Source: Neisseriaceae bacterium
GTDB lineage: Bacteria; Pseudomonadota; Gammaproteobacteria; Burkholderiales; Neisseriaceae
Length of the DNA: 64,000 nt
Direction: 5' to 3'
Assembly: GCA_017991555.1 (NCBI GenBank)
Contig: JAGOQM010000004.1
Coordinates: 18,273-82,272, forward strand
Shown here: piece by piece, positions 4,244 to 61,454 of the stretch
How positions within the stretch are numbered: the stretch's first letter is position 1
How the letters are laid out: every line of letters starts with the position of its first letter
Translations under genes and position numbers: made by a program
Notes under the pieces: generated by a model
Told to the model about the DNA's origin: nothing
What the model saw: only the letters and a program-made list of their open reading frames with translations
Database searches by the model: none

Positions 4244-5800
4244 GTGTACGCACAAAATCGCTTGTTACAAATCGTGTGGGCTCGGCCCTATTTACTGTAC
4301 GCCCTGATGGTTTTAGGGGGCGCGGCGACGCCGCTGGCGTTTGCACCGTATCGCTTAAGCTTCATGATGGTGCTGCTGCTGGGGATGCTGTTCTTTTTTG
4401 CCTTTGGCCACAAACACTCAGTGCGCCTGGCTTATCTTTGGGGCATCAGCGCCTATGTGGCGCAGTTTTACTGGATCAACATTGCCCTCAATGAAACCGC
4501 AGGGCTGCCCCAGTTCTTGGCGGTGCCGCTGACGCTGCTGCTGCCCGCCTATTTGGCGTTGTATCCCGCCTTGGCATTTTGGCTGGTGCGCCAGCTGAAA
4601 CTGTCGGCGTTTCAGGGCTTGGCCGTGGGCCTGCCCTTTGCTTGGGCTTTAGGCGAATTTGTGCGAGAACGGGCGTTTACCGGTTTTGGCTGGGGTGCTC
4701 TGGGCTACAGCCAAATTGGCGCGCAGTCGCCGCTGGCCGGGTTTGCGCCCGTGGGCGGCATTCACATGGTGACGCTGGCGGTGGCCTTGATTACCGCCTG
4801 GCTGGTGTTGGCGCTGCGCGCGCCGAAGGCCAGCACCCAAGCGGGTGGCGTCATTGGTATTTTGCTGGTGTTGGGCTTTGGCAGCAGCGTGAAAGACGTG
4901 CCGTTTACCCAGCCGGATGGCACCAAGGCCACGGTGGCTTTGGGCCAGGGCAATATTCCACAAAGCCTTAAGTGGCAGCAGGATCAGGTGATGCCAACGT
5001 TTCAAACCTATTTTCAGCAGGTGGCAGACACCAAGGCCGACATTTTGATTTTGCCCGAAACCGCGTTGCCGCTGATGAAGCAGCACATTCCGGTTAACTG
5101 GCTGCAAGACTTTGCCGACACGGCCCGTCACAACGGCACCGCGTTGGCGATGGGGATGAGCCAGTTTGCAGACGATGGCGAGAACTACTTGAACGTGGTG
5201 GTGAATATGTCGGATTACGACGGCACGCCGGGTAAGGCCGACCCTTACTATGCCAAAGACCATTTGGTGCCGTTTGGTGAGTTTATTCCGTTAAAGAGCG
5301 TGACCAACTGGCTCTATCAGTTCATGGACATTCCATTGGCCGACACCACCCGTGGGGGCAAGGGGCAGGCGCCGTTGCAACTACACAACCAGCGGGTGGC
5401 GTTTAACATCTGCTACGAGGACGGTTTTGGGGACGAGCTGATTGCCTCGGCCAAACAGTCGAGCCTCTTGGCCAACGCCAGCAATATGGCCTGGTATGGT
5501 GAATCTTACGCCATGGACTTACACCTGCAGCAGTCGCAGGCACGGGCCTTAGAGCTGGGTCGTTACATGGTGCGCAGTACCAACACGGGCATGACGGCGA
5601 TTATTCAACCGAATGGGGAGATTCAAAGCGAATCGGTGCGGGTGACGCGCACGGTCCTGCAAGGTGAAATCGAAGGACGCAGCGGCGAAACGCCGTATAT
5701 GCGCCTGGGCAGCAGCTGGCCCTGGTTTTGGCTGTCGACGCTGGTTCTGGCGGGCCTAGGCTGGCAGGCCAGACGCCGTAGAAAGGCGAAGAAAAGTTAA
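4244..5800 (+). CDS. lnt: apolipoprotein N-acyltransferase
   Basis: 518 aa with a multi-TM N-terminus followed by a CN-hydrolase domain. GTG start after AAGGAAG. Synteny with corC supports the call. Confidence 0.9.
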   Translation: MYAQNRLLQIVWARPYLLYALMVLGGAATPLAFAPYRLSFMMVLLLGMLFFFAFGHKHSVRLAYLWGISAYVAQFYWINIALNETAGLPQFLAVPLTLLLPAYLALYPALAFWLVRQLKLSAFQGLAVGLPFAWALGEFVRERAFTGFGWGALGYSQIGAQSPLAGFAPVGGIHMVTLAVALITAWLVLALRAPKASTQAGGVIGILLVLGFGSSVKDVPFTQPDGTKATVALGQGNIPQSLKWQQDQVMPTFQTYFQQVADTKADILILPETALPLMKQHIPVNWLQDFADTARHNGTALAMGMSQFADDGENYLNVVVNMSDYDGTPGKADPYYAKDHLVPFGEFIPLKSVTNWLYQFMDIPLADTTRGGKGQAPLQLHNQRVAFNICYEDGFGDELIASAKQSSLLANASNMAWYGESYAMDLHLQQSQARALELGRYMVRSTNTGMTAIIQPNGEIQSESVRVTRTVLQGEIEGRSGETPYMRLGSSWPWFWLSTLVLAGLGWQARRRRKAKKS

Positions 5801-51490: not shown

Positions 51491-51566
51491 GCACCCATAG
51501 CTCAGTTGGAAGAGCGTCAGTTTCCGAAGCTGGAGGCCACAGGTTCGATCCCTGTTGGGTGCGCCA
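51491..51566 (+). tRNA. tRNA-Arg (anticodon CCG)
   Basis: A manual cloverleaf fold fits: acceptor gcaccca/tgggtgc, D arm gctc/gagc, anticodon stem tcagt/gctgg with loop ttCCGaa, T arm acagg-ttcgatc-cctgt, and an encoded CCA. Confidence 0.9.
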
Positions 51567-56534: not shown

Positions 56535-57692
56535 TTAAAGTAAGGACAAAATTTTGCCGACCAGCATGCCAAAGTAAGTGCCGGCAAAAGACCCCATCAG
56601 CGCCATCAAGACGCCAATCGGAATGAGCGATTTATGGTAGCTGGCGGCCAACATCGGGGCCGAGGCCATGCCGCCAATATTGGCCAAGCTGGCCACGCCC
56701 AAGGTGAATAAGTCGTAGCGGAACAGCTTGCCCAATAGCACCATCACAATCAGGTGAATGAACAGGATCAGGAAGCCAGACACCAAATAAATCGGGGCTT
56801 GGGCCAGGTTGCTGAAGTCTGAGCGTGAGGCAATCAGGGCAATGATGACGTACAACATCACGTTGGACAATTCCATTGAACCCGACATTTTAGACAAGGG
56901 CGTCATGGCCAAAATTAAGCCAATCACCGAGGCCAACATGATGGTCCAAGTGGTGCCATTGATCACGTCGCCCACGTTGGGTAGCTGTTGCCCAGCCCAG
57001 GTGCAGACGGCGGAAATCAAGAGGCCAATGCCCAATAAGTATAAAATGTTTTGGAAGGTGATGGGGGCGTCTTCGACTTCGGCTTTTAAGTTCATGGCTT
57101 CGGTCGACAGCTGTTCTGGCGCCTTGGTCCACTTGTTGAAACGGCCAGCAAACGGCACCAGCCAGAACATGAACATCACCCACACGGCGTAGTTAATGGT
57201 GTCCATCATTAAAATGTAGCCAAAAATGGTTTCCGGCACGTCTAGGATGCTTTGTAAGGCCACCATATTGGCCGAGCCACCGGTCCAGCTGCCAGCCAGT
57301 GCTCCGAATGCGCGCCAGGTACCGTCGATGTAAAAATGTTTGAGGCCGACATAAACCACCACAAACCCCACCAAAATGCTGAACACGGCACAGGCGTAGG
57401 CCACCAGCATGCGTGGGCCAAGATGAATGATTTCGCGCAGGTTACACTTAAGCAACATCAGCGCCAGCATGGCGGGCAACAGCGCGCTGCGTACCGAAGA
57501 GTAGGTGTTGCTGATGGATTCGGAAGGCGCAAACACGCCAAAGGTATTCATCATCGAGGCGCCGATGTAGATCAACACCACCGCCGGTAAAAACGTGAGT
57601 AGCTTGCGGGCATGGGCGTATTGCTGAAAAGCCGCCATGGCGGCCGCCCAGGCGATTAACACGCTGAGGTAGATAAAGCCTTGTTCAATCAT
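56535..57692 (-). CDS. DUF819-family polytopic membrane protein (putative transporter)
   Basis: 385 aa with about 10-12 TM helices. Sits 33 nt upstream of the epimerase on the same strand. Confidence 0.7.
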   Translation of the reverse strand: MIEQGFIYLSVLIAWAAAMAAFQQYAHARKLLTFLPAVVLIYIGASMMNTFGVFAPSESISNTYSSVRSALLPAMLALMLLKCNLREIIHLGPRMLVAYACAVFSILVGFVVVYVGLKHFYIDGTWRAFGALAGSWTGGSANMVALQSILDVPETIFGYILMMDTINYAVWVMFMFWLVPFAGRFNKWTKAPEQLSTEAMNLKAEVEDAPITFQNILYLLGIGLLISAVCTWAGQQLPNVGDVINGTTWTIMLASVIGLILAMTPLSKMSGSMELSNVMLYVIIALIASRSDFSNLAQAPIYLVSGFLILFIHLIVMVLLGKLFRYDLFTLGVASLANIGGMASAPMLAASYHKSLIPIGVLMALMGSFAGTYFGMLVGKILSLL

Positions 57693-57751
57693 GAGTTTCT
57701 CCTTGAATTATTGTGGTGGCCAGAGGCCGTTTTGTGTGTGCGCAGGCAAAA

Positions 57752-57809
57752 AAAATCCAGCCAAGCGCGCGCCTGCTGGTTGAGCAAGCGTTGCGATTGG
57801 CTGGATTTT
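57752..57809. terminator. long-stem hairpin, probable bidirectional terminator
   Basis: 13-bp stem aaaatccagccaa/ttggctggatttt around a 32-nt loop, flanked by an A-run and a T-run. Confidence 0.5.
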
Positions 57810-57841
57810 ATTTAGGTGATTAAATAAAGCAGCTTAATCAG

Positions 57842-58168
57842 CTATTCGGCATCACGTTGAAGATGTTGGGCATATTTTTTCTGAGCGTCTTTAAATGCCA
57901 CAATCAAGGCCTTCTGTGAGGCGCCTAAATAGCGTTGGGTAATTTGGGTACTGATGTCGCTGTTGTGAATGTGTTGGCCAATAAAAAAGCCCCGAATGAA
58001 CTTATTGGTCAGTGCCAGGGTGGTCGAACATTCAACGTCAACAATCAGGTGGGTTTTGGGGTCAATGACCAAGGCCAAAAAATAGGCCTTAAATTTTTCG
58101 GTTATGGGGTTGTTTTGCGGCGATTTGGCGTCGCCAACCACATAAATGGTGTCTTCATCGTAGGGCAT
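57842..58168 (-). CDS. small conserved hypothetical protein (DUF3870-like, assignment tentative)
   Basis: 108-aa ORF with coding-like composition and no shadow-ORF explanation. The family assignment is from memory only. Confidence 0.55.
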   Translation of the reverse strand: MPYDEDTIYVVGDAKSPQNNPITEKFKAYFLALVIDPKTHLIVDVECSTTLALTNKFIRGFFIGQHIHNSDISTQITQRYLGASQKALIVAFKDAQKKYAQHLQRDAE

Positions 58169-58446
58169 AGAGTGTCACCTTTGTGTTGTCTGGCCATGGA
58201 TGAGGCTTAGGGCCAAGCGGCTGTTTTTGTCCGTGGGCGCTTTGTTATTTTGACGTTAGGCCAATGAGTTGCGCTGGCGACAGACATGGGCGCAAATATA
58301 GCATTGAACAAATGATTCGGCAATAGTGCCTCCCGGCGGCGACACCGACGACTTTTGTTAGAAGAAGGTGTTTAGGCGTCATTAATGGATGGTTTTGTGT
58401 GTGCTGTAAAACATCTCTCACTGGTGCCGATTCTCTGACGGCGTCT

Positions 58447-58687
58447 CCTTTAGGTGAAGTACCGTCCCGTAGAGCCGCCGAAGTAGGTTCTATTGAGCCA
58501 GATGAAGCAGGCAAAAAGCTTGTGGCGCCCGACCACGCTTTGATAGGAGGGCGAGCACTCTTGCCTGCGCTGGCTCAATAGGTTCTGCTGAGGGCAGTCA
58601 CGCAGTGACCGGGGATCAGGGTGGCCTTTTCTTTGCTTCGTTTCTTTTGGCCACGCAAAAGAAATGACGTCGCCCATTGGGCGAAAC
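58447..58687 (+). repeat. left copy of a ~240-bp structured repeat (inverted pair)
   Basis: Aligns over its whole length with the reverse complement of 58777-59019, about 80 percent identity by eye. Carries nested stems with compensatory changes. Confidence 0.9.
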
Positions 58688-58776
58688 AAAACGCCCAAAT
58701 TTAAGTCATGCCTGACTAAAATCAGCATTTCAAAATCATTCATGCTTCGGCAACATCGCTATTGATTAGTCGTTGG

Positions 58777-59019
58777 GTTTCGCCCTGTAGGGCGACAGAC
58801 TTTCTTTTGCGTGGCCAAAAGAAAGTATGCAAAGAAAAGGCCACCCGACAATCCGCCCTAGCGGGTGCCCTCCCTGGAACCTATCGGGCCGGCGCTAGCA
58901 AGAGTGCTCTGTCTCCTATCAAAGCGTGGTCGACAGCCACAAGCGATTTGCTAGCTTCATCCGGCCCGATAGAACCCAGCTCGGCGGCTTTAGCGGGAAA
59001 TCGGTACTTCACCTAAAGG
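58777..59019 (-). repeat. right copy of the ~240-bp structured repeat (inverted pair)
   Basis: It is the reverse complement of the left copy. Stems: ctatcgggccgg/ccggcccgatag, gctagcaa/ttgctagc, ctgtc/gacag. Confidence 0.9.
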
Positions 59020-59294
59020 CAAGCGTGGTGAGTTTAAATAATTTGGCCTTCACCAAACCATGGTTTGCTTCTCGTCTTACAGACAGTGGGCTGATGAGGC
59101 GAGGCCGTGGGTAAACCGAAGCCTAGGGCATGACAGCATGAAAAATCAAGGCCAGGTGGGTCACGATCCATCCTAGTTGACCGATGCAGAGCCTGTTTGG
59201 CCTATTTTTTGTCATCAACTTGGGGTATTGTAAACGTCATCACGCCCTGTTGTATGGTGGGCGATTAAGTTTAAATAATGATTAGGAGACAAAC

Positions 59295-59930
59295 ATGGGG
59301 ATTCACCGTTTTTTTACCAGTTTAAATGACTTAGAACGCATTATTCGGGCGCCAGGGCGCTTTAAGTTTGAAGAGCATAACGTGGCGGCACACTCATGGA
59401 AAGTGTCGCAGTACGCCATGTTTTTTGGCACCCTCGAGGAAATGAACGGCGCCGACATTGACTGGAAGGCGGTGTATGAAAAAACCATTAACCACGACTT
59501 TGCCGAAGTGTTTATTGGCGACATCAAAACCCCGGTCAAGCATGCGTCGCCTGAGCTCAAGCAAATGCTTAGCCATGTCGAAGAAAAAATGATGGAAAAG
59601 TTCATTGTGGATGAAATCCCTGAAGAATTTCAAGCCGTGTTTTTTCACCGCATGAAAGAAGGCAAGGACGCCAGTATTGAAGGGCGCCTATTGGAGCTGG
59701 CGGATAAGCTGGACCAGTTTTATGAAGCCTTTGCCGAGCTTAAGCGAGGCAACCGCGACCATGAGTTTATCGACATGTACCAAAACGCCTTGAGTAAAAT
59801 TTTGCACATGCCTTTGACGGCCAGCGTGGCCTATTTTAGGCACACCATGCTGTTAGACGTGCTGGCCGAGGATTCACAGATTGACCTATACGACCTGACC
59901 CATGAAGTGTTGGCGCAGGTGGCGGCTTAG
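59295..59930 (+). CDS. HD-domain hydrolase, YfbR-like 5'-deoxynucleotidase family
   Basis: 211 aa. The motifs EHNVAAHSWKV, NHDFAEVFIGDIKTPVK and ELADKLD parallel E. coli YfbR. RBS AGGAGA. Confidence 0.78.
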   Translation: MGIHRFFTSLNDLERIIRAPGRFKFEEHNVAAHSWKVSQYAMFFGTLEEMNGADIDWKAVYEKTINHDFAEVFIGDIKTPVKHASPELKQMLSHVEEKMMEKFIVDEIPEEFQAVFFHRMKEGKDASIEGRLLELADKLDQFYEAFAELKRGNRDHEFIDMYQNALSKILHMPLTASVAYFRHTMLLDVLAEDSQIDLYDLTHEVLAQVAA

Positions 59931-59945
59931 GCGAGGAGGGTCAGC

Positions 59946-60332
59946 ATGATTCAGCGTAAGCGCATTTATGAGCCGTCTGCACCCAGCGACGGTCAGCGCC
60001 TGTTGGTGGATCGGCTGTGGCCCCGCGGCGTGAGCAAGCTGAATGCACGCTTGGATGATTGGCTTAAGGTCATTGCGCCTTCAACGGCGCTGCGCCAGGC
60101 CTATCATCAGGGCAGCTTGACCTTTGCAGAGTTGACCGAGCGGTATGAGGCCGAACTGTTGGGCCAGCCGGAGGCGGTCGCCTGCTTGACCGATTTAGCC
60201 GCGCGCAGCGCCACGCAGGCGCTGACCTTCATCTATGCTGCGCGGGATACCGAACAAAATCACGTGTGTATTTTAATGGGCTTGTTACAGCGGCAGTTTG
60301 GGGCGCTGTGTTCAGGCGAAGCCTTGGCTTAG
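59946..60332 (+). CDS. DUF488-family protein (YeaO-like)
   Basis: 128 aa with the pattern RLLVDRLWPRGVSK...WLKVIAPS...LR. Starts 15 nt after the HD gene, with RBS GAGGAGGG. Confidence 0.78.
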   Translation: MIQRKRIYEPSAPSDGQRLLVDRLWPRGVSKLNARLDDWLKVIAPSTALRQAYHQGSLTFAELTERYEAELLGQPEAVACLTDLAARSATQALTFIYAARDTEQNHVCILMGLLQRQFGALCSGEALA

Positions 60333-60425
60333 AGCGTAGAGGCCAGCAGGTTAGTCAATGAGGGATGGGCGATTAGGACGAGTTAAAGCATTATTTAAAA
60401 CAGTTGGGTACAGAGGAGAAGGCAC

Positions 60426-61454
60426 ATGGAGATGACGCAGACAAACGCGCGCCCAAACGCCAACCACCCGATTAGCTTACATGCGGTGCAGGTGTTGCAA
60501 AGCCTGTGCGACAAGCTGGGGGTGACCGTAGACTTATTGGCGCATTTGAACGTGGATCATAAAATTAAGGACATGACGGTGATTGCGCGCAGCGAAGAGC
60601 TGCACGCCTTTCAGGTGGCCTTAAATAAATGCAAGCGGCTGGACTTAGGCCTGTTATTGGGCCAAGAAATGCATTCGGCTTCGTATGGGATTTTGGGCTA
60701 TGTGATGCTGGTGAGCGACCAGCTGCTAACGGCTTTAAACTGCGCTTGGTCGTGCCCGCTACAGTTGGGCAGCTACTTTCAGGCGCGGCTCACCCAGCAG
60801 CAAGGCTTGGCGTCGATTGCCTATACCGATTATGCGGCCGACGTGAACCTGTATGCGTTCAACGTCGATACCTGCTTGAGCTCTTATTGGTGCATCATTC
60901 AATCGATTTTGGGCGAGCAGGTTTGGCCCACTAAAATTCATTTAAAGCGCCGGCAGCTGACCTATGTGGCGGCTTATGAAGCGCTATTTCAGTGCCCCAT
61001 CGTGTTGGGTGCGCCAGAGGACGCGCTGTTTTTCCCCGCCTCATGGTTGAGTCGGCCCGCGCGTTATCACAACCAAACCAGCTTTGAGATGGCTTACAAG
61101 CAATGTCAGGCGATCGAAGAAAGCCTGGCCCAAACGGTGATCGATACCTGGGCGGCCAAAGTATCGACGCTGTTGGCCAGCGACATTGTACGTTATGCGG
61201 CCATTGGCAACGTGGCGGATGCGCTGTGCGTGACCGAGCGCACCTTGCGGCGTTATTTAAAGTCTGAATCGACGGCGTTTCAGTGGTTGCTGAGCGAGGC
61301 GCGAATGACGCAGGCGATGCTGTTGCTGCAACAGGGGCAGCTGCGGATGAACCAAATTACCGAACAGCTTGGCTACAGCGACCCATCGGCGTTTCGGGTG
61401 GCATTTAAGCGTTGGAAGGGCATGACGCCATCGGCCTTTCGTCGGCAGGCGTGA
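60426..61454 (+). CDS. AraC-family transcriptional regulator with an N-terminal ligand-binding domain
   Basis: 342 aa with the C-terminal AraC HTH pair (ITEQLGYSDPSAFRVAFKRWKGMTPSAFR). Confidence 0.88.
   Translation: MEMTQTNARPNANHPISLHAVQVLQSLCDKLGVTVDLLAHLNVDHKIKDMTVIARSEELHAFQVALNKCKRLDLGLLLGQEMHSASYGILGYVMLVSDQLLTALNCAWSCPLQLGSYFQARLTQQQGLASIAYTDYAADVNLYAFNVDTCLSSYWCIIQSILGEQVWPTKIHLKRRQLTYVAAYEALFQCPIVLGAPEDALFFPASWLSRPARYHNQTSFEMAYKQCQAIEESLAQTVIDTWAAKVSTLLASDIVRYAAIGNVADALCVTERTLRRYLKSESTAFQWLLSEARMTQAMLLLQQGQLRMNQITEQLGYSDPSAFRVAFKRWKGMTPSAFRRQA

Follow-up and report, generated by a model that had tools for sequence, protein, structure and literature searches.

A tail-to-tail doublet of structured non-coding repeats in a Neisseriaceae genome, with a putative triple-helix module shared by repeats of other Beta- and Gammaproteobacteria

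We analyzed a 64,000-nucleotide stretch of the genome of a Neisseriaceae bacterium (assembly GCA_017991555.1, contig JAGOQM010000004.1, positions 18,273 to 82,272 of the forward strand), referred to here as the window, with coordinates counted from its first letter. Between the divergent genes for a DUF3870 protein and a YfbR-like HD hydrolase lies an inverted pair of structured sequences. The pair probably represents one insertion of a dispersed repeat that is non-coding and non-autonomous; here two diverged arms, called A and B and each about 340 nt long, stand tail to tail as a doublet. Within a small clade of uncultured freshwater Neisseriaceae, genomes carry the repeat at several loci each. 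We are much less confident in any particular mechanism than in this identity.

The inverted pairing reported in an earlier note on this DNA is real. Segments 58470-58596 and 58866-58992 are 80% complementary, segments 58619-58675 and 58790-58846 are 88% complementary, and the ends 58447-58464 and 59002-59019 pair perfectly over 18 nt. The end-to-end identity of about 80% estimated in the note agrees with the alignment of both copies (81% mean identity, with small indels). The limits given there for the arms (58447-58687 and 58777-59019) stand as far as inverted pairing is concerned but not as to extent, as homology continues both outward and inward. What had been taken for an 89-bp spacer consists mostly of the diverged inner tails of both arms, and the arms, placed by nhmmer at 58442-58729 and 58732-59029, nearly abut. 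In an alignment of ten copies, outward homology on both sides reaches a terminal palindrome, AAACCATGGTTT, whose sole perfect match in the window is at 59055-59066; all arms could be aligned up to (A/C)CCATGGTT / (A/C)AACCATGGTTT, and the flanks past the palindrome are unrelated. Both window arms terminate in (A)AACCATGGTTT and form inverted repeats over their entire length, while the solo B elements found on contigs L003 and L016 (described below) are asymmetric. The homology-based extents of the window arms are thus about 58388-58729 (+) and 58732-59066 (−), and the main features are as follows.

58330-59187, no strand: block missing from the intergenic region between the DUF3870 and HD genes of related genomes; alignments to the empty sites L032 and L026 end at 58329 and restart at about 59188. 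Besides the doublet, the block includes flanking sequence of about 58 nt (left) and about 125 nt (right).
58388-58729, + strand (the structured, inward strand): left arm, A type; nhmmer match at 58442-58729, with A-arm homology out to ATGGTTTT at about 58388.
58732-59066, − strand (the structured, inward strand): right arm, B type; nhmmer match at 59029-58732, homologous out to AAACCATGGTTT with the B arms of L003, L007 and L017.
59055-59066, no strand: 12-nt palindrome AAACCATGGTTT that terminates the right arm on its outer side, from the ten-copy alignment and the motif match in the window.
About 58386-58397, no strand: degenerate terminal palindrome at the outer end of the left arm, from the copy alignment.

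Copies at other loci were recovered by several routes. Scanning one genome per species with the 18-mer of the hairpin loop yielded two more, on contigs L003 and L007 of the Neisseriaceae metagenome-assembled genome (MAG) Go_Leine_bin_75, and a profile search of L007 found a second, divergent, inverted copy there (L007b). Further copies were retrieved via the spurious open reading frames (ORFs) that gene callers put on the element, leading to contigs L015 and L017 of MAG GCA_017984955.1 and to ENA contig L016; contig L018 contained no match to the element and merely continues the gene abutting the truncated B arm of L015. ORF artefacts of the element occur on at least four contigs of a third MAG. 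The MAG 'KBC57' carries the element on several contigs, and for its proteins P0004, P0006 and P0010 there is no contig on record. No match was found by BLASTN of the doublet against plasmids and phages, nor in a metagenome scan with the B-type loop plus CTCTTGC.

Four loci (the window, L017, L015 and L007) carry tail-facing doublets, and two (L003 and L016) have solo B arms. Identity between B arms of different genomes is 84-95%; among the A arms within the window's genome it is 95-97%. The partner arm on L007 is divergent and mosaic, with a 3′ module resembling that of A arms and a P4 hairpin resembling that of B arms, which suggests gene conversion between arms. The copies are dispersed over at least four loci in GCA_017984955.1 and at least two in Go_Leine_bin_75, beside unrelated genes in every orientation (kdpFABC, EamA/TatD, metW/htpG, alanine symporter/fba). 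Contigs of GCA_017984955.1 end within the element, and assemblies of two samples break inside it at the window locus. In the kdp-linked doublet of L015, the B arm is cut inside P3 at about position 5158 and runs straight into an ORF for a membrane-like protein (P0003/P0009), either through a genuine truncation or fusion or because the MAG contig is chimeric.

The gene order DUF819-DUF3870-intergenic region-HD is kept in GCA_030146515.1, in several Logan assemblies and in Go_Leine_bin_75, where the intergenic region measures 326-342 nt and lacks the element, compared to 1126 nt in the window; Go_Leine_bin_75 carries its copies elsewhere. Being dispensable, polymorphic and multi-copy, the element behaves as a mobile or recombining repeat and not as a leader, riboswitch or fixed small RNA (sRNA) gene. 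Among the options raised in the note, a structured mobile element is therefore favored by the multiple copies, the assembly breaks, the presence or absence at orthologous loci and the unrelated neighbors in both orientations, and an sRNA or leader specific to this locus is contradicted by relatives that have the same locus without the element.

Several short repeats were seen at or near the ends of the arms. An exact 13-nt direct repeat, GTTTTGTGTGTGC, occurs at the outer end of the left arm (58392-58404) and 663 nt away, upstream of the DUF819 gene (57729-57741); it may be due to chance or be a leftover of an earlier insertion. Sequences resembling AGTTTAAATAAT are present in three direct copies, in the outer region of the right arm (59031-59044), just upstream of the HD start codon (59268-59281) and within the HD gene (59319-59332), and the copy upstream of the start codon is also present at the empty site L032. 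The solo B arm of L003 is flanked by a repeat of roughly 26 nt, CTCACGACGCAYAYCAACCCATGGTT, at about 1490-1515 and 1985-2012, which includes the terminal CCATGG motif and is closer in appearance to att-like or duplicated ends than to a short target-site duplication. Beside the element at three loci (window 59101-59112, L003 about 1950-1990, L007 about 5335-5390) lies a GC-rich motif, GAGGCCGTGGGT / CCCACGGCC, often as a small hairpin. Tested as a window-wide repeat resembling repetitive extragenic palindromic (REP) sequences, GAGGCCGTGGGT showed no enrichment in the 64 kb; the motif may be an additional module of a mosaic repeat.

Each arm has a conserved fold of its own. The stems P1, P2 and P3 of the long hairpin and a loop identical between the two window copies were recovered where the note had placed them, together with a variable fourth hairpin and two conserved small hairpins, and in the copy alignment all eight stem differences between the window copies proved to be compensated. 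The 20-nt loop core, identical in both arms, occurs only these two times in the window, against 0.00 expected. Identity of the 18-nt loop holds for the window copies but does not extend to the wider family, as it differs in L007b and L016. Single arms were more stable than their own shuffles (z about −3.4 to −4.0). Covariation was assessed on eight distinct copies from at least three genomes, with a consensus structure from RNAalifold and the pairs counted independently. The consensus contains 67 pairs in eight helices, in which 96.8% of the cells are paired, compared to 39-47% when the partners are slid by 1-3 columns. Compensated pairing is well above chance: 21 pairs changed on both sides, and none of 500 shuffles reached the observed values. 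In the long stacked hairpin (helices 2-4), both-side changes were found in 15 of 37 pairs. Beyond P1-P3, the consensus predicts a P0 and a variable hairpin, both covarying, the U/A-rich and GC hairpins and a long-range helix GCCGCC:GGUGGC, which is invariant, so that covariation neither supports nor refutes it. The arm is thus modeled as a closing helix, the P0-P3 hairpin with its conserved loop and internal loops, a variable hairpin, a 14-bp U/A-rich hairpin and a GC hairpin, placed in the window as follows.

58474-58479, + strand: GCCGCC, predicted long-range helix with GGUGGC at 58620-58625 (RNAalifold helix 1); it rivals the loop GCCAC for the same partner.
58482-58589, + strand: long stacked hairpin of the left arm, with P0 at 58482-58486/58585-58589, P1 at 58490-58501/58570-58581, P2 at 58507-58514/58561-58568, P3 at 58526-58530/58549-58553 and the loop at 58531-58548.
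58873-58980, − strand: long stacked hairpin of the right arm, with P1 at 58881-58892/58961-58972, P2 at 58894-58901/58948-58955, P3 at 58909-58913/58932-58936 and the loop at 58914-58931.
58597-58609, + strand: variable hairpin P4 of the left arm (gtcac-gca-gtgac), conserved in place, unrelated or covarying in sequence (helix 6).
58853-58864, − strand: P4 counterpart at the same position in the right arm.
58670-58684, + strand: GC hairpin of the left arm, TCGCCC-ATT-GGGCGA followed by AAC; a GC hairpin stands 3′ of the module described below in most taxa.
58780-58796, − strand: equivalent GC hairpin of the right arm.

The structured strand, as modeled, is the one reading towards the center of the doublet. 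Its consensus energy was −88.3 kcal/mol, compared to −68.6 kcal/mol for the outward strand, and it gave the better fold in all eight copies. The inward fold contains 47 G·U cells against four A·C cells, although the energies are the fairer test of strand because the structure was optimised on the inward strand. These values speak against the outward orientation considered in the note, in which the loop would have resembled an anti-Shine-Dalgarno sequence.

The 3′ part of each arm contains a module with an unusual logic. On the inward strand its order is GGGTGGCC / TTTTCTTT / G / CTTCG / TTTCTTTTG / GCCACG / CAAAAGAAA / TGACG, after which the GC hairpin follows. The pyrimidine strand (Y), the purine strand (R) and a 5-bp lower stem form a 14-bp hairpin, and the lower stem covaries (GTTAC/GTAAC, GTGAC/GTCAC, CATAC/GTATG, GGTTC/GAACC, CCTAC/GTAGG). 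The tract upstream of the hairpin (H, for Hoogsteen) is the parallel complement of R and is neither a copy nor the complement of Y. A paperclip search of the 64-kb window for this triplex logic matched at the two arms only. The predicted parts of the module in the window are listed here.

58619-58669, + strand: triplex/pseudoknot module of the left arm, from the paperclip search, mirror-consistent states and tail-loop shuffles.
58619-58626, + strand: tail GGGTGGCC, predicted to pair with the loop.
58627-58634, + strand: predicted Hoogsteen strand TTTTCTTT.
58636-58640 and 58665-58669, + strand: predicted lower stem, CTTCG / TGACG.
58641-58649, + strand: predicted Watson-Crick pyrimidine strand TTTCTTTTG.
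58650-58655, + strand: predicted loop GCCACG.
58656-58664, + strand: predicted purine strand CAAAAGAAA.
58797-58846, − strand: triplex/pseudoknot module of the right arm in the same layout, with GGGTGGCC at 58846-58839, TTTTCTTT at 58838-58831 and the hairpin at 58829-58797.

Among 24 module instances, including those from other taxa described below, five distinct H/Y/R states were found, and all 24 obey both the Watson-Crick and the parallel Hoogsteen rules.

State 1: TTTTCTTT / TTTCTTTT / AAAAGAAA.
State 2: TTTCTTTT / TTTTCTTT / AAAGAAAA, in Pasteurella, Aeromonas and Burkholderia.
State 3: TTTCTTT / TTTCTTT / AAAGAAA, in Ralstonia.
State 4: TTTTTCTTT / TTTCTTTTT / AAAAAGAAA, in L007b, by three coordinated substitutions.
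State 5: TTTCTTCT / TCTTCTTT / AAAGAAGA, in L022.

Immediately 5′ of H lies a GC-rich segment whose sequence is complementary to that of the hairpin loop and covaries with it (GUGGCC:GGCCAC, GGUGGC:GCCACC, UCGCC:GGCGA, UGUA:UACA, GGCCC:GGGCC). The mean tail-loop helix is 4.7 bp, compared to 3.5 ± 0.26 bp when tails and loops are re-paired at random, and none of 10,000 shuffles reached 4.7. This helix is weak in Ralstonia, L019 and L025, and in the Neisseriaceae element GGUGGC could alternatively pair with the 5′ GCCGCC. The three-way (mirror) covariation and the covarying tail-loop pairing likely reflect a pyrimidine-motif triple helix within an H-type pseudoknot. With a 5′-Hoogsteen pyrimidine block, a Watson-Crick pyrimidine block and a purine block-3′ on one strand, the module agrees with the formal definition of class IV of Hoyne and Holder, a class of intrastrand triplex that is able to form in RNA as well (PMC4666352). 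The covarying lower stem leaves a linker of 1-2 nt between the third strand and the hairpin, and such a linker across 5 bp would suit A-form RNA better than B-form DNA.

The module is not confined to the Neisseriaceae. A search pattern built from the positions invariant in the five copies then known matched a high-GC metagenome contig (L012), and BLAST and a scan of viral contigs recovered the module on Ralstonia megaplasmids, in Aeromonas caviae and Variovorax, on five IMG/VR contigs, in the aceF-lpdA intergenic region of a Burkholderia cepacia plasmid, and in Pasteurella multocida between dapF and the DUF484/xerC genes. Two of the records labeled as plasmids look chromosome-like, namely L024 (NZ_AP026896.1, 4.9 Mb, Aeromonas) and L014 (NZ_CP020346.1, 325 kb, Pasteurella, with dapF, xerC and clpB). 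A profile of the peptide encoded in one frame of the module (GWPFLCLLSFGHAKE...) retrieved 92 protein clusters, all annotated as 'hypothetical' and none with a Pfam family, from Hydrogenophaga, Rhodoferax, Acidovorax, Paracidovorax, Polaromonas, Variovorax, Ramlibacter, Collimonas, Vogesella, Aquitalea, Chitinilyticum, Chitinolyticbacter, Methylobacter, Methylomonas, Rhodocyclales and Thiobacillus. Repeats with this module thus occur in Ralstonia, Burkholderia, Vogesella, Aeromonas, Pasteurella, Comamonadaceae and Methylococcales.

Alignment of full units revealed a common architecture. From the 5′ end, AGCCGCCGAG or CGCAGCCGAGC is followed by a long stacked hairpin (in Burkholderiales and Vogesella with the recurrent loop GTCYGAGCGCAGCGAGTT); then come GCAGGGCA or GAGGGCA, a small variable hairpin, GGGYSGCC with the module and, usually, a GC hairpin. 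Units are arranged tail-in in the Neisseriaceae element, tail-out in Ralstonia, Pasteurella and L022, and in direct tandem in Vogesella. In Vogesella sp. EB (L034, 1470-2065), two tandem direct units of about 330 nt with the hairpin loop GTCCGAGCGCAGCGAGTT and the triplex module are interleaved with REP-like hairpins (GTAGGTTGGG...CCCAACCTAC). By sequence, the arm thus appears to be a lineage-specific version of a wide, apparently undescribed superfamily of repeat units of about 250 nt, whose 3′ module is shared almost letter for letter. Searching an incomplete literature collection by topic and by sequence string, we found no prior description.

How such an element could work can be set out as a model. 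The U-rich tract 5′ of the U/A-rich hairpin would occupy the major groove of this hairpin as a Hoogsteen strand in parallel orientation, forming U·A-U and C+·G-C triples, and pairing of the GC-rich segment upstream of this tract with the hairpin loop would close an H-type pseudoknot with a triple helix. The element would be selfish, maintained or propagated through a single-stranded form, and its fold might be recognized in trans by a factor encoded elsewhere, as for REPINs and RAYT (REP-associated tyrosine transposase) or IS200/IS605-derived elements and TnpA. Read-through RNA from a neighboring gene would acquire a very stable 3′ structure that could hinder exonucleases or undergo processing, and the doublet would offer one 'sense' arm to transcripts from either side. 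We infer that the fold is a handle for a trans-acting mobilizing enzyme, an RNA 3′-end or processing element, or both. It probably acts single-stranded, and probably as RNA, a form favored by the wobble asymmetry, the RNA-compatible triplex class and the 1-2-nt linker across a 5-bp stem.

Several observations weigh against an insertion of a dispersed structured repeat. Copy density is low, with one element locus in the 64-kb window, no further copy and no other sizeable repeat. At the polymorphic locus an 858-nt block replaces 89-95 unrelated nt and does not insert into an intact site, and neither the flanks nor the empty-site comparison revealed a clean target-site duplication at the window doublet. 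The terminal boundaries are fuzzy, and L003 is flanked by its 26-nt direct repeat and not by inverted ends. No transposase or other mobilizing gene was found near any copy, nor a sigma-70 promoter or intrinsic terminator consistent across copies; on the outward strand, the GC hairpin plus T tract is a borderline terminator, as the T tract begins 5 nt past the stem. Folded as one strand of 679 nt, the doublet favors a long A:B foldback (−398 kcal/mol) that would compete with the local folds, although the differences between A and B are compensated pairs inside local stems, so that the local fold has been preserved at the foldback's expense. Template-switch mutation in quasi-palindromes can produce compensated changes without selection, and the shuffle statistics overstate independence because the copies are related. 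The triple helix itself is deduced from sequence logic alone, and H could Watson-Crick pair with R in a shifted register of 6-7 bp since the tracts are nearly mirror-symmetric.

One rival reading is that the repeat acts at the level of DNA only. Its quasi-palindromes and its polypyrimidine/polypurine mirror repeat (forming H-DNA or an intrastrand triplex) would then owe their symmetry to template-switch repair and gene conversion, with no RNA role and local genomic instability as the main effect. The locus is hypervariable among relatives, with replacement instead of clean insertion, the L007b mosaic suggests gene conversion between arms, and the doublet in its entirety has a strong tendency to fold back or form a cruciform. 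Intrastrand triplex motifs of bacterial repeats have been linked to rearrangement, and H-DNA or an intrastrand triplex was proposed for one such repeat, BoxC (PMC4666352). However, the excess of G·U over A·C cells and the better inward fold of every copy are unexpected under a symmetric DNA mechanism, single-stranded loops and junctions are conserved across genomes, and the 1-2 nt between third strand and hairpin would suit A-form RNA over B-form DNA; we consider this explanation rather unlikely. The strand-specific conserved fold, the conserved loop and junction sequences and the lack of coding capacity would also fit genuine sRNA genes, that is, paralogous converging pairs with their own promoters in the outer 60-120 nt that act in trans via the 18-nt loop; in addition, B arms and L007b have kept an AT-rich motif, TTATTTAAnCTCAC, some 25 nt upstream of their structured core. 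Against this, the copies have no sigma-70-like promoter or intrinsic terminator in common, and convergent transcription without terminators would collide. The orthologous locus of relatives is free of the element, copies are scattered beside unrelated genes, the loop differs in L007b and L016, and the same architecture occurs in tandem, tail-in and tail-out arrays in other taxa. Functional sRNA genes are therefore a minor possibility.

Guide or scaffold RNAs were also considered, an orphan guide RNA having been suggested in the note. A unit of about 250 nt with a multi-stem fold and pseudoknot, in multiple copies, lacking an ORF and with a 3′ end GGGCGAAAC..AAC, has features expected of a TnpB or IscB omega-RNA or an IS110 bridge RNA on non-autonomous copies, used in trans. 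But genes for TnpB, IscB, IS110, reverse transcriptase or integrase are absent from the flanks of all seven loci, there is no match to HEARO or another Rfam family, the arms are two inverted copies of one unit and not distinct left and right ends, and a variable segment resembling a guide is not apparent at any fixed end, making such an RNA very unlikely. A cis-regulatory leader or riboswitch pair for the DUF3870 and HD genes is suggested by the position in a 1.1-kb divergent intergenic region, from which outward transcription would enter both genes. The structured strand, however, is the inward one, other copies lie between convergent or co-directional unrelated genes, and in relatives the same two genes are separated by 326-342 nt without the element. 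On the strength of these empty orthologous sites we rejected a riboswitch or leader, to which we give next to no credence. A dispersed non-coding repeat remains the reading we prefer.

In comparison with known systems, the element falls among the structured intergenic repeats, matching neither Correia, BoxC, BRE nor any Rfam family. It shares with MITEs (miniature inverted-repeat transposable elements), ERIC/IRU, the Correia/NEMIS elements of Neisseria, RUP and BOX a non-coding, multi-copy, intergenic nature with inverted symmetry, long hairpins when single-stranded or transcribed, insertion polymorphism and spurious ORFs. It is much larger than these, with arms of about 340 nt and a doublet of about 680 nt, and each arm has a strand-specific multi-domain fold of its own beyond the arm-to-arm complementarity. 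Like a MITE it is short, non-coding and without a transposase, has terminal inverted repeats and is dispersed with insertion polymorphism; unlike a MITE it shows no target-site duplication of fixed length, and no cognate insertion sequence (IS) was found in the window or in the copy flanks. Correia/NEMIS elements are 100-155 bp long and have a characteristic 26-bp terminal repeat; this repeat (TATAGTGGATTAACAAAAA) had no matches at up to three mismatches in the window, and a Correia element was rejected. With REPINs the element has in common inverted doublets of a structured unit with a GC-rich hairpin, compensated stem changes, solo units and a putative mobilizing enzyme encoded elsewhere. 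It differs in size and copy number, REP units being 20-40 nt long and present in hundreds of copies and the unit described here, at about 340 nt, being about ten times longer and sparse, and in the GTAG tetranucleotide, which is not conserved because the position covaries within a stem. No RAYT gene was seen in the copy flanks examined, and no genome-wide search for one was made.

A close parallel to the module's logic is found in the PIT (potential intrastrand triplex) elements and BoxC (= TMECO), intergenic repeats with three consecutive homopurine/homopyrimidine blocks on one strand, in the complement and mirror relations of an intrastrand triple helix (Hoyne et al., 2000; Holder et al., 2015, PMC4666352). 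BoxC has a G/C-rich purine motif (class I/II), CCCTCNCCC-N3-6-GGGNGAGGG-N3-GGGNGAGGG (PMC4666352), whereas the module has an A/T-rich pyrimidine motif (class IV), embedded in a 14-bp hairpin with an extra covarying tail-loop helix as one domain of a larger unit. Identity with BoxC/TMECO was rejected as both sequence and class differ, and BoxC-like matches were limited to the unrelated loci L005 and L024. The same search logic found these G/C-rich motifs (CCCTC...GGGAGGG) at about 1224 in L005 (Phytobacter) and at about 69 and 1325 in L024 (Aeromonas caviae), one of the Aeromonas motifs lying about 200 nt from the A/T-rich module. The betaproteobacterial BRE (Hot et al., 2011, PMC3110155) is likewise intergenic, GC-rich, multi-copy and sometimes tandem, and overlaps an sRNA locus; it is about 90 bp long, and the published BRE sequences contain none of the module strings tested. 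Identity with this Bordetella repeat was rejected; BRE is a separate element or, at the most, a distant relative of the 5′ part of ours.

H-type pseudoknots with major-groove U·A-U triples are known from the telomerase RNA pseudoknot and the SAM-II and preQ1-II riboswitches, and related triplexes from stability elements of the ENE/MALAT1 type. The resemblance concerns how the module may work and not family membership. The order S1-L1(U-rich)-S2-S1′-S2′, with L1 parallel to the A-rich S2 strand, is that of the telomerase and SAM-II pseudoknots, and like ENE/MALAT1-type elements the module would be stable and potentially exonuclease-resistant. It differs from all of these in being bacterial, repeat-borne and multi-copy, without sequence or family relationship and without a ligand or poly(A) partner, and its tertiary structure is deduced from covariation.

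The surroundings of the doublet in the window are ordinary (AceK, an enolase-superfamily protein, DUF819, DUF3870, the YfbR-like HD hydrolase, DUF488, AraC and a deacetylase), and the two genes that flank it are the following.

57842-58168: DUF3870 gene.
59295-59930: YfbR-like HD hydrolase gene, divergent from the DUF3870 gene.

As the note had observed, no transposase, reverse transcriptase or integrase gene is adjacent to the pair; we further found no IS in the window or the examined copy flanks and no PADLOC defense-system match for five neighboring genes tested. Guide-RNA partners of the TnpB, IscB or IS110 type, which the note had proposed looking for, are not encoded near any of the seven loci. 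Conservation is non-coding and bears on secondary structure. The two long ORFs through the pair, one of 97 aa on the − strand and the other of 84 aa on the + strand, are in a common frame in patches only, and a coding function was rejected: no ORF is conserved across copies, their frame and extent differ, and no Pfam family was matched. The note had likewise seen no known RNA family in the pair, and our scans agree. Positions 57000-60500 matched no family of Rfam 15 (including HEARO, 6S, tmRNA and riboswitches) at E ≤ 1. At gathering thresholds the sole match over the whole window, L003 and L007 was a tRNA at 51491-51563, and a tRNA/tmRNA search found none in the element. At E ≤ 1, the relatives L012-L014 gave spurious miRNA-hairpin matches only. 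The HD hydrolase is 77-84% identical to Bacillota proteins (Viridibacillus, Lysinibacillus, Caryophanon, Rummeliibacillus), and among its best 120 matches the only proteobacterial homologues are three close ones of Neisseriaceae type. This pattern suggests that the gene entered this Neisseriaceae lineage by horizontal transfer, perhaps in one block with the neighboring DUF3870 gene.

For the genomes that carry it, the element accounts for contig breaks and spurious ORFs in MAGs and could be used as a strain-typing marker. We suggest, tentatively and as a possibility short of an expectation, that the arm and its superfamily represent a hitherto overlooked class of structured RNA, about 250 nt long and widespread in bacteria, that spreads as a repeat, with a 3′ triple-helix pseudoknot serving RNA stability or processing, or else recognition and copying by a trans-acting enzyme; the 3′ domain would then be a bacterial analogue of a telomerase-type or ENE-type triplex. 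To our knowledge, the RNA triple-helix pseudoknot fold is known from a handful of RNAs, none of them a bacterial repeat. If true, an entire superfamily of structured repeats, ranging over Comamonadaceae, Burkholderiaceae, Chromobacteriaceae, Rhodocyclales, Methylococcales, Aeromonas and Pasteurella, would have been overlooked, being without an Rfam entry and now annotated only as short 'hypothetical proteins'. It would also offer a concrete test object for the role of bacterial triplex elements in RNA stability and for the movement of repeats without an evident transposase.

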